From the NCBI GenBank assembly GCA_036012755.1, contig DASCPX010000043.1, forward strand, positions 32,001-96,000: a stretch of DNA of 64,000 nucleotides, read 5' to 3'. Source of the stretch: Myxococcota bacterium. Its GTDB lineage: Bacteria > Myxococcota_A > UBA796 > CAJQPC01. Shown in pieces: positions 33,282 to 38,787 of the stretch. The notes beneath the pieces are model-generated. The model searched no databases and was not told where the DNA came from. It saw nothing but the letters and a program-made list of their open reading frames with translations. Numbering within the stretch: position 1 is the stretch's first letter; each line of letters opens with the position of its first letter. The position numbers and the translations under genes are program-made.

Positions 33282-35408
33282 ATGATCCTGTTGCTGCTGT
33301 CCGCTTGCCCCAAGCCCCAGCCCGCCGACGAGGTCCTCGCCCTGACGGCCCCCGCTTCGATCTACCCGGAGACGATGAAAGGCGACGTGGTCGACGACTA
33401 CCACGGCACCCCAGTGCCGGATCCCTACCGCTGGCTCGAGGACAGCGAAGCCGAGGACGTCCGCGCCTGGATCGACGCGGAGAACAGACTCACAAAGGCC
33501 TACCTCGGCCAGATCGACGAGCGGGAGCGCATTCGAGCACGGATGACCGAGCTCTGGGACTACGAGCGGTACTCGATCCCCTACGAGGAAGGAGGGAGGT
33601 ACTTCTGGAGCCACAACGACGGCCTCCAGAACCAGTCCGTTGTCTACGTCGCCGACTCGCCCGAGGCCGAGGGCCGCGTGCTGCTGGACCCCAACACCCT
33701 CTCAGAGGACGGAACCGTAGCGCTCTCGGGCACCTGGGTGAGCGAGGACGGCAGGTACCTCGCCTACGGCGTCTCCGACGCGGGCAGCGACTGGAAGACC
33801 ATCCAGGTCATGGAGATCGAGACCGGGGACGTCCTCGACGACAAGATCGAGTGGGTCAAGTTCTCTGGCGCGTCCTGGACCCACGACGGCAAGGGCTTCT
33901 TCTACAGCCGCTTCGACGAGCCGACCGACGAGGGCCTGGAGTCGATCAACTACTACCAGAAACTGTTCTACCACCGCATCGGAACGGACCAGTCAGAGGA
34001 CGAGCTCGTCTTCCACAACCCCGACGAGAAGCGCTGGGGCTTCTATGCGGGAATCACCGAGGACGGGCGCTACGCGGTGATCTACAACTGGGAAGGGACC
34101 GACCGGAACAACCGCATCTTCTACAAGGACCTCGCCAAGGGCGGCGAGGTGGTCCCATTCCTGATGGACTTCGACGCCAGCTACGCTGTCATCGGGAACG
34201 ACGGCACCCGCTGGTACATCGAGACGGACAAGGACGCCCCGAAGAAGATGGTGGTGGCGTACGACCTCGAGCGACCCGCCAAGAAGCCCGAGATCCTCAT
34301 CCCCGAGAGCGAGGATCCGCTGCGTGGTTGCAGCATGCTCAACGAGCAGTTCGTCTGCAGCTACCTCCACGACGTGAAGACACAGGTCAAGGTCTTCGAC
34401 CTGAAGGGCAAGCCGGTGCGCGACGTGGAGTTGCCCGGCATCGGCTCCGCCTGGGGCTTCGGCGGGGACCGCGAAGACACCGAGACGTTCTACAGCTTCA
34501 CATCGTTCACCACACCCGGCACGATCTATCGCTACGACATGAAGTCCGGAGAGAGCACGCTGTTTCGCGCCCCCGACGTCTCGATGCCAGAGGGCGAGTA
34601 CGTGACGACGCAGGTCTTCTACCCGTCAAAGGACGGAACGAAGATCCCGATGTTCATCACGCACAGAACCGGCGTGGAACTCGACGGAGAAAACCCCGCC
34701 TTTCTCTCCGGCTATGGCGGCTTCGACATCTCGATCACGCCCTACTACTCCACCGTCAACCGGGTCTGGCTCGAGATGGGTGGCGTGCTGGCCATCGCGA
34801 ACCTCCGCGGCGGCGGCGAGTACGGTGCGGACTGGCACGACGCCGGGCGCCTGAAGAACAAGCAGAACGTCTTCGACGACTTCCACGCCGCGGCGGAGTA
34901 CCTCATCGCAGAGGGCTACACGACCACGGACCACCTCGGCATCGGCGGACGCAGCAACGGCGGACTCCTGGTCGGGGCCGCCATCACACAGCGTCCGGAT
35001 CTGTACGGCGCGGCGCTCCCCGGTGTCGGCGTGCTCGACATGCTGCGTTTCCACGAGTTCACGATCGGACACGCCTGGACGTCCGACTACGGCGACCCGG
35101 ACGATCCCGAGATGTTCCCGGTCCTCTTTGCATACAGTCCCTATCACAACGTAGAGGACGGGAAGGAGTACCCACCGACCCTGATCACGACCGGCGACCA
35201 CGACGACCGCGTGGTGCCAGGGCACAGCTTCAAGTTCGCGGCCCGCATGCAGGAGGCCCAGGCCGGCGGTGACCCGGTGCTGATCCGGATCGAGACCCGG
35301 GCTGGTCACGGCGCTGGAAAGCCCACCGAGCTGCAGATCGCGGAGTGGACCGACCAGTGGGCCTTCCTAGTCAAGAACCTGGGGGTCATACTGCCAGAGG
35401 AGTTCTGA
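33282..35408 (+). CDS. prolyl oligopeptidase (S9A), lipoprotein
   Basis: 'DPYRWLE', 'YGGF', 'NLRGGGEYG', 'KQNVFDDF', GRSNGG nucleophile, 'DHDDRVVPGHS', 'AGHGAGKP'. GGAGG RBS. Confidence 0.95.
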   Translation: MILLLLSACPKPQPADEVLALTAPASIYPETMKGDVVDDYHGTPVPDPYRWLEDSEAEDVRAWIDAENRLTKAYLGQIDERERIRARMTELWDYERYSIPYEEGGRYFWSHNDGLQNQSVVYVADSPEAEGRVLLDPNTLSEDGTVALSGTWVSEDGRYLAYGVSDAGSDWKTIQVMEIETGDVLDDKIEWVKFSGASWTHDGKGFFYSRFDEPTDEGLESINYYQKLFYHRIGTDQSEDELVFHNPDEKRWGFYAGITEDGRYAVIYNWEGTDRNNRIFYKDLAKGGEVVPFLMDFDASYAVIGNDGTRWYIETDKDAPKKMVVAYDLERPAKKPEILIPESEDPLRGCSMLNEQFVCSYLHDVKTQVKVFDLKGKPVRDVELPGIGSAWGFGGDREDTETFYSFTSFTTPGTIYRYDMKSGESTLFRAPDVSMPEGEYVTTQVFYPSKDGTKIPMFITHRTGVELDGENPAFLSGYGGFDISITPYYSTVNRVWLEMGGVLAIANLRGGGEYGADWHDAGRLKNKQNVFDDFHAAAEYLIAEGYTTTDHLGIGGRSNGGLLVGAAITQRPDLYGAALPGVGVLDMLRFHEFTIGHAWTSDYGDPDDPEMFPVLFAYSPYHNVEDGKEYPPTLITTGDHDDRVVPGHSFKFAARMQEAQAGGDPVLIRIETRAGHGAGKPTELQIAEWTDQWAFLVKNLGVILPEEF

Positions 35409-36487
35409 TGAACCGCCGCCGCCTCCTGCAAGGACTCAGCGCGCTTCCCATCGTGGGATGCGGCAGCGGGGTCGACACCGGCGCCGACCCCAGTCCCTTC
35501 GACAGCGGCTCGCTTCCCGGCACGCCGCAGGAAGCGGGCTTCCGCATGCCAGCCGAGTGGGAGGCGCACGACAGCTGCATCATGGCCTTCCCCACCGGGT
35601 CGAGCTGGCTCAAGGGCCGCGAGCTCGACAGCGCCCGCACCGAGTGGGCAGACACGGCCAACGCCGTAGCCGAGTTCGAGCCCGTCACCATGGTGGTGAA
35701 CCCAGGGGACGACTCGACGGCGCAGGCGCTGCTCGACTCGCAGATCGAGCGCATCGAGATCGACATCGACGACGCCTGGACCCGGGACACGGCGCCGCTG
35801 GTCCTCGTCGACGACCAGGGCAACCGAAGCTGCGCAGCCTTCGGCTTCAACGGCTGGGGAGAGAAGCAGGACTACGAAAAAGACGCGGCGCTCAAGCACC
35901 ACCTGGCCGAGCACCTGGGCCTGGAGTCCTGGGTCATCGACGCCATCCTCGAGGGGGGCGCCATCACCGTGGACGGCCTCGGAAACTGCATCACCACCGA
36001 GCAGTGTCTCCTGGAGGAGAGCCGCGGCCTCCAGGACAAGGGAGCCTGGGAGCAGCTCCAGTTCGAGAACCTGGCGGTCGACAAGACGATCTGGCTACCT
36101 TCGGGGATCGTGCCGGATCCGATCACGGACGGACACGTCGACGGCATCTGTGTCTTCGTCGAACCAGGAACCGTGATGGTCAGCATGACGGACTACGAAC
36201 CCGACCCGAACTACACGATCTGCCAGGACGCCATCGCGCAGCTGAAGGCGGAGGGGTTGGAGGTCATCGAGCTGTTGATGGGCATGAAGGTGCTTCACAT
36301 CAACTTCTACATCTGCAACGGCGGCGTGGTCGTGCCCATCGCCGGCTCGGACCGCGAGGACGACCAGGCGCTCTCCCAGATTCGCAACTTCTTCAGCGAC
36401 CGCACCGTGAGGACCGTCGAGGCGATCACGATCAACGGTCTCGGCGGGGGCATCCACTGCATCACCCAGCAGGTGCCGTCGGCGTAG
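35408..36487 (+). CDS. agmatine/peptidylarginine deiminase family, Tat lipoprotein
   Basis: N-terminus MNRRRLL...IVGC; 'MPAEWEAH', 'DAWTRD', 'FNGWG', 'LEGG', 'TDGHVD', 'GGGIHCITQQ'. TGATG coupling. Confidence 0.9.
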   Translation: MNRRRLLQGLSALPIVGCGSGVDTGADPSPFDSGSLPGTPQEAGFRMPAEWEAHDSCIMAFPTGSSWLKGRELDSARTEWADTANAVAEFEPVTMVVNPGDDSTAQALLDSQIERIEIDIDDAWTRDTAPLVLVDDQGNRSCAAFGFNGWGEKQDYEKDAALKHHLAEHLGLESWVIDAILEGGAITVDGLGNCITTEQCLLEESRGLQDKGAWEQLQFENLAVDKTIWLPSGIVPDPITDGHVDGICVFVEPGTVMVSMTDYEPDPNYTICQDAIAQLKAEGLEVIELLMGMKVLHINFYICNGGVVVPIAGSDREDDQALSQIRNFFSDRTVRTVEAITINGLGGGIHCITQQVPSA

Positions 36488-36495
36488 TATCCGGC

Positions 36496-37935
36496 ATGCC
36501 TTGGCTCTACACGCTGCTCGGAGCGCTCCTGGCCCTCGGCCTGTCGATCGTGCCGCTGGCTGGTCTGGATACAGACCTGGAGTTCATGCCGAGCATCGTC
36601 GACCAGCTGCAGGTGGGCGGCCTGCTGTCGGCCATCTGGCCGTGGTTCTTCTGCGGGCGCGCCGCCGCTCGCCTGCTCGGATGGAGGAGGTCGGCGCTGG
36701 CGGGCACCTTGCTCGCCAGCGCGCTCGCGACCGTGGGGCTCGGGAGCATCCTCATGGACGTGATGCTCCCGAGGCACGTGATGCTGCTCGCGAGCTCCGG
36801 CGCAGCGAGCTCCGCGCTGCTCTGGTGGGTCTGTGATCGCCTCCGCGAACGAGGTGCCCTCGGCGGCACGATGACCGTCATGGGCGGGGTGCTGCTCCTG
36901 GATCTCCCGAGGCTGGCGATGGGCCACGGGGCATCGCTGGCCACCGACCCGAGCATCCTGCTCTTCGTTCTCGGAGCCGCGGCGCTGCTGAGCCCCGCGG
37001 CCCTCGGCGTAGCGCTCTGGAGGCGACTGCCCGAGCGGCCCCCGCCGTGGCTCCCGGTCAAGCACCCCCTGGAGCTCATGCTGTTGCCGCTGGCAGTCGG
37101 CGAGCTGGTCTCGGGTCTGCGGGCGCCCGGTCTTCCCTACGTCCTGGACAGCCTGGCCATGCTCGGGGCGGTCGCCCTGGTCCTCTGGCTCACCCGCGCC
37201 AGGACCCAGGGCCCACCAATGCTGGCCGGAGCCGGCGTCGTCGAAGGACTCGTCGTGCTCGGGTCCCTCTGCTGGGGAATCCACGCCACCAGCGACATCC
37301 TCGGCGCGCGCTACGTAGAAGGGCCCGTCGACGGCAGCCACTCGGTCCGGGTCCTCTGCACGGCGCCGGGGGCCGACCTCGCCGAGATCGAGCGCATGCG
37401 GGCCCGCATGGACGAGCTGCGCATCGAGGGCAACGTGCAGCTCCTCGACGGTCTCGTCCAGCTCGAGCTGCTCGATGTCGCCGAGCCGACGGAGCTGATG
37501 GACACGCTGACCGCGCCGAGCCGCTTCGAGATCCGTCCGGAGAACGTGGGGGATCCGGTGCTCTCGGTCGCCCAGTGCCCTGGCTGCGAGGTGATCGACC
37601 TGGGCGAGGTCGTGCTCACAAACAGCCACATCGCCAAGGCGACGATGAACATAGGCTACGCCGGTGCGCCGGGGGTGGCCCTGGAGTTCACCCCCGACGG
37701 AGAGGCCACCTTCGCCGCCCTGACGACCCAGACCGTGGGCTCTCGCATAGCGCTGATGGTGGACGGCCAGGTGCTGTCGGCCCCCTACGTGATGGAGCCC
37801 ATCACCGGCGGCAAGGCCTGGCTCACCCTCGACGGGGCCTCTGTCGAGGACGCCCAGGTCATCGCGACGCTCCTGTCCCTGGAGCCACTGGAGGCGACCT
37901 GGATCGCCCGGGACTTCCAGGAGATCACTCCCTGA
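36496..37935 (+). CDS. multi-TM protein (SecY-like N-part) fused to SecD P1-like domain
   Basis: C-terminal 'PGVALEFTPDGEATFAALT...RIALMVDGQVLSAPYVMEPITGG' is the SecD P1 head signature. The N-part has SecY-like segments (see findings). Confidence 0.7.
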   Translation: MPWLYTLLGALLALGLSIVPLAGLDTDLEFMPSIVDQLQVGGLLSAIWPWFFCGRAAARLLGWRRSALAGTLLASALATVGLGSILMDVMLPRHVMLLASSGAASSALLWWVCDRLRERGALGGTMTVMGGVLLLDLPRLAMGHGASLATDPSILLFVLGAAALLSPAALGVALWRRLPERPPPWLPVKHPLELMLLPLAVGELVSGLRAPGLPYVLDSLAMLGAVALVLWLTRARTQGPPMLAGAGVVEGLVVLGSLCWGIHATSDILGARYVEGPVDGSHSVRVLCTAPGADLAEIERMRARMDELRIEGNVQLLDGLVQLELLDVAEPTELMDTLTAPSRFEIRPENVGDPVLSVAQCPGCEVIDLGEVVLTNSHIAKATMNIGYAGAPGVALEFTPDGEATFAALTTQTVGSRIALMVDGQVLSAPYVMEPITGGKAWLTLDGASVEDAQVIATLLSLEPLEATWIARDFQEITP

Positions 37936-38476
37936 TCCGCCCCGCCGTGCAGGTGGCCTCCGTCGCCTTGCAGATGGCGAAGGCCTGGGCACAGCGGACG
38001 ATGACCTCTTCGCCGTCGCGGATGCGGACGAGTCCGGCGAGCTCGGGCTCGCCCTCGACCCACTCGGCCCAGATCTTGTAGGTGCCCACGTCGACGGGGC
38101 CGGCGCCAAAGGCCTTGTCGCCCTCGCCCACGAGCACGGCCTTGAGCGCGTCACCCTCGAAACGCACCAGGCTGTCGCCGGTGGGGCAGACCTGGTTTCC
38201 CTCCCAGGTGGCGCCGGGAGTGCGGACGGGCAGACAGAGGGCGAAGGCGTCGTCGCAACGCAGGGTGACGATCTCGTCGGCGACCAGCGTGACGCGGCCA
38301 GCGACGAAGGGTGGACCCTCCGCCCAGGTCGTCAGCACGAGGTAGCGGCCCGCGGGCACCTCTCCAGGGGGAGTGAAGGTGCCCTCTGCGCCGAGGAGCT
38401 CGACCTTGCGTACGTTGCCCTCGACGAGGACGGTGGCGGGCTCCTGTGCGAGAGCCATGGCGAGTGTCAGAAGCAT
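37925..38476 (-). CDS. secreted hypothetical protein with two ~70-aa internal repeats
   Basis: MLLTLAMALA; repeats end in 'VPAGRY...AGRVTL...LRCDDAFALC' and 'VDVGTY...AGLVRI...VRCAQAFAIC'. Confidence 0.75.
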   Translation of the reverse strand: MLLTLAMALAQEPATVLVEGNVRKVELLGAEGTFTPPGEVPAGRYLVLTTWAEGPPFVAGRVTLVADEIVTLRCDDAFALCLPVRTPGATWEGNQVCPTGDSLVRFEGDALKAVLVGEGDKAFGAGPVDVGTYKIWAEWVEGEPELAGLVRIRDGEEVIVRCAQAFAICKATEATCTAGRIRE

Positions 38477-38787
38477 GCGCTGATCGTCTCCTCGTAGTCG
38501 TCGCCCTGGGCATGGGGGTAGCCCTGGCACTCCTCTGTGAGGATGGGGCAGTCGTCGCTCTCGCCGCCCGAGTCGAAGGTGCAGAGCTCGTGGCACTGCC
38601 GGTCACCGACCGGGGCCTCGCACACCAGCCGTCCCTTCTTCGTGACGCAGGTCCAGGAGTGCCAGCAGAAACCGGAGGAGCAGTCCTCGTCGTAGCAGCA
38701 GGTGGCGGTCCCCTCCTCACGACAGAGAACACCCGGATCGATGTCGTCGTCGCCGGTGCAGGCGAGCGAGAGGACCAGGGCGATCAC
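38467..38787 (-). CDS. small Cys-rich lipoprotein
   Basis: MIALVLSLAC and many Cys. GTGA overlap with the upstream gene. Confidence 0.75.
   Translation of the reverse strand: MIALVLSLACTGDDDIDPGVLCREEGTATCCYDEDCSSGFCWHSWTCVTKKGRLVCEAPVGDRQCHELCTFDSGGESDDCPILTEECQGYPHAQGDDYEETISACF

Follow-up and report, generated by a model that had tools for sequence, protein, structure and literature searches.

The locus and its open reading frame

The subject of this work is an open reading frame (ORF) on the plus strand of a 64,000-nt window of contig DASCPX010000043.1 from a Myxococcota genome (G000, hereafter the source genome; all positions given are those of the window). It encodes a protein in which a domain of nine transmembrane (TM) helices is followed by a SecD-type P1 domain (Table 1). 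An initial annotation of the window had described the gene as a degenerate SecY paralog fused to SecD P1 and had proposed that it might act as an alternative translocon component, perhaps for special substrates. As detailed below, the domain composition of the protein and the homology of its first five TM helices to SecY are, taken together, very likely correct. Judged by its sequence, the protein joins the P1 domain of SecD to a membrane domain that derives, in reduced form, from the N-terminal half of SecY.

The GC content at third codon positions (GC3) of the ORF is 0.90, as is usual for coding frames in this DNA. Orthologues that share the start ('MPW...'), the length and the architecture were found in P0002 (99% identity), P0003 (68%), P0004 (62%; almost identical to the metagenome locus L075) and G002, a genome of the same genus (47%). 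The shared start and two-part architecture in these orthologues indicate that the ORF is real and does not result from an assembly accident.

Table 1. Position and extent of the ORF, its domains and the neighbouring genes in the 64,000-nt window.
Feature	Position	Strand	Residues and description	Basis
Whole ORF	36496..37935	+	479 aa plus stop; 9-TM domain, then P1 (predicted periplasmic)	open translation
TM1-TM5, homologous to the SecY N-terminal half, plug deleted	36496..36954	+	aa 1-153	hhalign, family vs SecY
Core of the SecY similarity	36781..37047	+	aa 96-184; TM4, loop 'DRLRERGALGG', TM5, TM6	HMMER, both directions
TM6-TM9	36946..37284	+	aa 151-263; family motif 'LWRRLP..PP.WLPVKHP.EL.LLPL', cytoplasmic	motif kept in all members
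Complete SecD-type P1 domain, base and head	37339..37926	+	aa 282-477; predicted periplasmic	structure alignment to 3aqo_C
'CPGC' insertion in the P1 head	37576..37587	+	aa 361-364	
P1 head subdomain (PF22599)	37606..37893	+	aa 371-466	Pfam
Prolyl oligopeptidase gene	33282..35408	+	starts 'MILLLLSAC'	
PAD_porph / agmatine deiminase-type gene	35345..36487	+	upstream of the ORF	Pfam PF04371, E 9e-84
Convergent ORF	37925..38596	-	223 aa	

The C-terminal region is a complete SecD-type P1 domain

The initial annotation had placed a SecD P1 domain, without the TM bundle that follows it in SecD, in the C-terminal ~200 residues, and this assignment was fully borne out. The P1 head model of Pfam (PF22599, SecDF_P1_head) matched with an E-value of 1e-14 (54.8 bits, cut-off 27), and a phmmer search of the PDB retrieved the P1 domain of Thermus thermophilus SecDF (3aqo/3aqp) at E ~1e-14. 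The structural comparison that had been suggested as a check gave a concordant result: with VIA-align, aa 282-477 of the AlphaFold model aligned with residues 41-262 of 3aqo_C at a Z score of 20.2 and a root-mean-square deviation (rmsd) of 2.5 Å over 195 residues (26% identity), and Foldseek returned an E-value of 2.7e-12 with a TMt of 0.77. The extent of the alignment to 3aqo_C shows that the whole P1 domain is present, including both base and head. Model confidence (pLDDT) was 76-87 across this part of the protein.

With regard to the remainder of SecD, the NCBIfam SecD/SecDF models matched within the P1 head stretch only and far under their cut-offs (e.g. 42 vs 244), and Pfam detected no SecD/SecF TM domain (PF02355) in the ORF, which stops 13 residues past the P1 head. 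Compared with SecD and SecDF (TIGR01129; PF22599 plus PF02355; T. thermophilus 3aqo/3aqp/5yhf), the window protein thus carries the same complete P1 domain directly after a TM helix and, by prediction, in the periplasm, but lacks the bundle of the resistance-nodulation-division (RND) type (PF02355), the 12-TM proton-driven motor and a SecF/P4 partner within the protein. Elsewhere, the SecD P1 domain is driven by a proton-powered motor.

The P1 domain is most closely related to short P1 lipoproteins of sister lineages, to which it aligned with 67 and 58 bits (E 1e-20 and 5e-18), whereas the SecD of its own genome is more distant (36.9 bits). These lipoproteins (L082, L083, L084, L085 and L086, in G070, G023, G174 and G040) are ~230-260 aa long, match PF22599 only and appear, from their sequences, to constitute an undescribed periplasmic family. 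Like the window protein they are without the SecDF motor, but in place of its nine-TM domain they have a signal peptide with a lipobox cysteine (L-A-C / L-A-G-C). No P1 lipoprotein was found in the source genome, whose two PF22599 matches are SecD and the present ORF; at least two such matches occur in 26 of the 151 genomes of the phylum sample (the source genome counted).

The P1 head contains a 'CPGC' insertion (Table 1), the cysteine pair of which is kept in P0003, P0004, G184 and G183 and is missing in G002. This conserved pair could possibly form a periplasmic disulfide loop.

The first five helices of the membrane domain are homologous to SecY

In the membrane domain (aa 1-263) six hydropathy peaks reach the threshold and nine helices were assigned by eye; nine helices are likewise seen in aa 1-272 of both AlphaFold models. 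The distribution of charges in alternate loops follows the positive-inside rule for an N-in / C-out orientation, which predicts a periplasmic location of the P1 domain. Neither Pfam nor NCBIfam gave a match in the TM domain, i.e. no Pfam model recognises it.

The family was extended by six-frame profile searches of genomes, which were more sensitive than the library search because E-values are computed per genome. These searches revealed distant members in G184 (TM + P1) and G155 (TM only). With a 5-sequence profile (A4), the class genomes yielded G183 (TM + P1) and G213, G214 and G215 (all TM only), and a phylum-level profile search added G468 (TM + P1), which belongs to a different family of the phylum.

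When aligned by hhalign with a profile of 30 SecY sequences from the same phylum, which served as the SecY reference, the 10-sequence family gave a probability of 92.7% (P 4.2e-7, 173 columns) and the 11-sequence family a probability of 96.2% (P 2.1e-9, 175 columns). This alignment covers TM1-TM5, with family positions 1-177 (window aa 1-153) lying opposite SecY 17-217, and takes in the 'PGxD' turn after TM1. Reversed controls failed, both for SecY (P 0.98) and for the family (P 0.78). In a further control, the SecY of the source genome, used as a single sequence, came out at the top of 292 multi-TM ORFs (P 0.0012; next best 0.0049). Moreover, with an HMM built from the four sequences of the window clade, each of the 30 SecY sequences outranked the 352 other multi-TM ORFs from the source genome (best SecY P 2e-9, best other ORF P 2.7e-4).

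Genome-wide searches with the 5-sequence profile (six frames, E <= 1e-3) act as an unbiased test of this relationship. Among 182 class genomes, 12 of the 13 places hit outside the family were canonical SecY (580-729 bits with the SecY HMM), the 13th, in G182, being unassigned. Among 401 phylum genomes there were 34 such places, of which 18 were verified as SecY, 3 lie at known SecY coordinates and 13 are unchecked. Apart from SecY, no other family was identified in these two genome sets. The sole match of the family profile in the whole PDB was also a SecY (3dl8_G, E 0.45), on aa 96-184.

By their scores, the distant members are more SecY-like than the window clade. For the G184 protein, SecY is the second-best Pfam family (E 0.027; 14.3 bits vs a cut-off of 32.2), with aa 77-200 on model positions 34-141, and the G468 protein scored higher with the SecY HMM (30.4 bits) than with the family HMM (27.8 bits). 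The TM-only members share the nine-TM domain of the window protein and lack P1. Behind TM1 they retain a longer loop ('...PPAFSPLS.GLLGLV...'), which in the alignment falls on the plug region of SecY; their 'GIA(N/S)GAL.LFG' loop is also nearer to the SecY 'GIGNG' motif than that of the window clade.

All three strings that the initial annotation had read as SecY hallmarks are present, and two of them hold up as such. The string 'SIVPLAGLD' lies within the significant family-level alignment, and 'AASSALLWWVCDRLRERGALGG...LLLDLP' forms the core of every SecY alignment obtained. The third, 'LPVKHPLE', had been equated with the 'LPLK'/IPLK of SecY, and this equation was not sustained: TM6-TM9 gave P 0.38 against SecY with the 10-sequence family, and 0.35 against the C-terminal half and 0.38-0.48 against the whole of SecY. 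The description as a degenerate SecY paralog therefore applies to TM1-TM5 and is not supported for TM6-TM9, nor for the window protein alone when judged by the Pfam SecY model.

A second, divergent SecY paralogue of 449 aa was noticed in G053 (L087:2713-4062, minus strand; G053:C1 near 4.593 Mb), adjoining an flhB-like gene and a response-regulator gene. It matches Pfam SecY on model positions 1-144 only (E 2e-11) and has a weak DUF2007-like C-terminus. As a link to the window family it was ruled out (hhalign P 0.24), the two being related only via SecY itself.

The membrane domain lacks several features of SecY

Compared with SecY / Sec61alpha (PF00344), the window protein is alike in TM1-TM5, as judged by profile-profile alignment, and in topology. 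The 'P-G-x-D' turn after TM1 and the cytoplasmic TM4-TM5 loop 'W-L-x-x-x-I/L-x-E/R-x-G-x-x-x-G' are found at equivalent places. It differs in its size, with about nine helices in ~263 residues as against ten helices, arranged in two related halves (TM1-5 and TM6-10), in the ~440 residues of SecY; there is no TM10. The plug helix (TM2a), located between TM1 and TM2b in SecY, is not present in the window protein, in which the TM1-TM2 loop amounts to 17 residues, and the alignment of the window clade to SecY shows gaps of ~10 and ~23 columns at the plug region. Every loop of the domain is shortened. Those at the places of C4 (TM6-TM7) and C5 (TM8-TM9) are cut to ~15 and ~7 residues, the former leaving a gap of ~20 residues relative to SecY. 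In SecY, the C4 and C5 loops are the docking sites of the ribosome and SecA. No relationship is detectable between the second half of the domain and the C-terminal half of SecY; this second half carries a motif that is strongly conserved in the family, 'LWR..P......L.V(K/R).P.(E/D)L..LPL'. The protein is also unlike SecY in failing the Pfam model, in lying outside the canonical secY locus and in its fusion with a periplasmic domain. SecY2 paralogues are still recognised by the family model of SecY.

These features bear directly on the proposal of an autonomous alternative translocon, in which the SecY-like domain would conduct special substrates and the fused P1 domain would pull them out. Both modules of such a translocon do stem from the Sec machinery, the existence of TM-only relatives implies a role for the membrane domain by itself, and the homologous part includes TM2, which contributes one half of the lateral gate of SecY. 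However, the absence of the plug, of full C4/C5 loops, of TM10 and of a recognisable C-terminal half makes a channel fed by SecA or ribosomes unlikely. The source genome furthermore has a single SecE, no partner genes are conserved, and the family occurs in 4 of 401 phylum genomes. Hence we regard an autonomous translocon as unlikely, and the corresponding claim of the initial annotation is left unsupported.

Strength of the SecY signal in the window protein itself

A number of results weigh against the SecY relationship, most of them obtained with the window protein or its immediate clade. PF00344 gave no match at E <= 10 for the window protein, P0003, P0005 or P0009, and when 141 multi-TM ORFs were compared singly with the SecY profile, the window protein came only ~11th. 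The 4-sequence profile of the window clade reached an hhalign probability of 29.9% (P 5.5e-4; family 96-175 on SecY 157-235), the aligned stretch being the one to which the initial annotation had drawn attention. In the proteome of the source genome (10,466 ORFs), the family HMM found SecY at E 0.022 only, a Ser/Thr kinase scored equally with the core HMM (E 0.013), and the short motif 'L.DRLRE.GAL.G' was matched equally well by the kinase and a methyltransferase. An exhaustive HMMER search of 1.84 billion protein representatives with a 2-sequence N-terminal profile returned just two family members, and a word-indexed homologue search three close relatives only, with no useful additions from its region and 'shorter' variants. 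A search for related loci among genome contigs yielded a single, irrelevant SecDF fragment. HMMER detected no colinear SecY signal with the parts of the domain outside aa 96-184, and hhalign in -glob mode gave no match. The lack of SecY likeness in TM6-TM9, described above, points in the same direction.

The structure models of the membrane domain had low confidence, and fold searches with them gave discordant results. Its pLDDT was 30-60 in the first AlphaFold model, and mostly <50 for aa 1-130 in the second. With the full-length, low-confidence model, the longest TM matches were to chains of SecY/Sec61 (Z 7.5-8.6, 170-205 aa), and in an unbiased VIA search SecY (3bo0_A, Z 7.5, 190 aa) tied with short generic helical matches. 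The N-terminal-only model, likewise of low pLDDT, had no SecY among the top 50 of the unbiased VIA search (best Z 8.1, MmpL5); Foldseek listed SecY first for this low-confidence model, at E about 0.1 and with an rmsd of 14-20 Å. The ESM Atlas gave no feature hit of use, and the structural neighbours that it proposed, CdsA, SecY, LNT and Rce1, were discarded as noise (TM <= 0.42).

Before the distant members turned up, the SecY reading was evenly balanced at best. The initial annotation had foreseen that, lacking a significant SecY profile match, the N-terminal half would be a generic membrane anchor for an orphan P1 domain; at the family level, a significant match was obtained. In the anchor reading, the SecY likeness would be due to chance or to convergence of a short loop motif. 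Such an anchor would agree with a signal of the window protein that lies within noise, with a motif that unrelated soluble proteins fit equally well and with structural searches that are indecisive. It agrees poorly with the family-level match, which at 96.2% probability extends beyond the motif over all 175 columns of TM1-TM5 while the reversed controls fail, with distant members that become progressively more SecY-like, and with SecY as the sole family identified outside in the 182- and 401-genome searches. A generic anchor is accordingly very improbable.

Distribution and evolution of the family

The family is rare and patchy, being present in 8 (perhaps 9) of the 182 class genomes and in 4 of the 401 phylum genomes; among 41 related genomes it occurs only in the source genome and one genome of the same genus. 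A survey of the architecture, as the initial annotation had advised, thus has a double outcome: TM + P1 recurs (G183, G184 and G468), and some members consist of the TM domain only. TM + P1 ORFs are intact in at least three lineages, namely genus g1, genus g135 (G184 and G183) and, in another family, G468, with 24-68% identity and with invariant motifs in both halves. The TM-only members in G155, G213, G214 and G215 are about 310-350 aa long, with the same motifs as the TM + P1 forms; their loci are L096 (G155:C58), L097, L098 and L099.

Since TM-only, TM + P1 and P1-alone forms all exist, the window gene looks like a fusion of two pre-existing kinds of gene. TM-only genes and P1 lipoproteins never occurred together in the genomes examined, so that a 'Rosetta-stone' argument for joint function is unsupported. 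Two further observations likewise lend no direct support to a functional interpretation. No partner gene is common to the five genomic contexts compared, i.e. the neighbourhood is unconserved, and dN/dS between orthologues is 0.39-0.75 in both halves, which suggests a selective constraint on the gene that is weak to moderate.

That the gene is a decaying or neutral chimera, a lineage-specific fusion of little or no function in fast drift, would be in keeping with these dN/dS values, the narrow and patchy spread and the unconserved neighbourhood, but is hard to reconcile with intact ORFs of the same architecture in at least three lineages, invariant motifs in both halves, dN/dS below 1 and a GC3 of 0.90-0.94, and we consider it very doubtful.

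Genomic setting

The canonical secY, secE, secD and secF genes are each present in one copy elsewhere in the source genome. SecY, the sole PF00344 match of the genome, is on contig C80, and SecD and SecF are on a third contig, C27; a genome search for SecE gave one match, i.e. no second SecE. The initial annotation was therefore right in locating the gene outside the canonical sec loci and in expecting a canonical secY elsewhere.

The ATG of the ORF lies 9 nt past the stop of the PAD_porph gene, which is itself preceded by the prolyl oligopeptidase gene (Table 1). PAD_porph is also found one gene upstream of the L075 homologue, whose neighbours are PAD, a Cu-monooxygenase-like gene and PLD, and is absent beside the homologues in G002 (neighbours: a beta-helix lipoprotein and ADH), G184 (alpha-2-macroglobulin and PbpC) and G155 (short-chain dehydrogenases). 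The G184 member is directly downstream, on the same strand, of genes for an alpha-2-macroglobulin (1898 aa) and a PbpC-type penicillin-binding protein (734 aa), an arrangement seen at L114:10381-18278 (minus strand).

As to the two upstream genes in the window, the N-terminus of the PAD_porph enzyme resembles a twin-arginine signal, after which comes a lipobox-like 'IVGC'. This enzyme and the prolyl oligopeptidase, judging by their N-termini, may be exported lipoproteins. Their listed ORFs overlap by 64 nt, and one of the true starts is probably further downstream. On the other side, the convergent ORF overlaps the last 11 nt of the TM + P1 gene and has no Pfam match. It contains two similar segments of ~65 aa, each with 'RC..AFA(L/I)C' at its end, which suggests an internal duplication. 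The sequencing runs that carry this DNA bear the labels of marine or seawater metagenomes. None of the listed runs is an RNA run, which counts as evidence in neither direction.

Interpretation

The explanation that probably accounts best for these results is one of two Sec-derived modules, in which a passive P1 holder is mounted on a SecY-derived scaffold. As to function, we tentatively propose a Sec-associated periplasmic capture module rather than a stand-alone channel. In this proposal, the P1 domain would act as a passive, membrane-tethered catcher or holder of unfolded polypeptide at the periplasmic face; with the RND-type bundle missing, it cannot undergo the proton-driven swing of SecDF. 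The SecY-derived helices would serve as a scaffold in or beside the Sec machinery, or would form a partial groove together with the family's own TM6-TM9. The membrane domain may dock on SecYEG, and in this view it would not be a channel into which SecA or ribosomes feed substrates.

A more far-reaching idea is that the N-terminal half of SecY, either dimerised with itself or combined with the four unrelated helices, makes up a groove or mini-channel that works without SecA or the ribosome. Coupled in cis to the SecD head, this would amount to a single-polypeptide minimal translocon or insertase. We consider this a long shot. If true, it would mean that one half of SecY can work without the other, with implications for the proposed origin of SecY from a simpler half-channel by duplication.

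Few membrane proteins are as well conserved as SecY, of which only a small number of paralogues are known, such as SecY2 of accessory Sec systems and the eukaryotic Ssh1. Among the literature matches listed, neither a fusion of SecY with SecD P1 nor a family derived from one half of SecY has been described. The relationship was missed by Pfam, by the HMMER search of 1.84 billion proteins and by AlphaFold, and surfaced through iterated profile searches at the genome level. Within the SecY superfamily, these proteins form a new and highly reduced branch, the domain architecture of which is likewise new. If the window protein is functional, it raises the questions of which parts of SecY suffice for a role in the membrane, whether P1 can act without a motor, and how parts of the Sec machinery recombine into new factors of envelope biogenesis.

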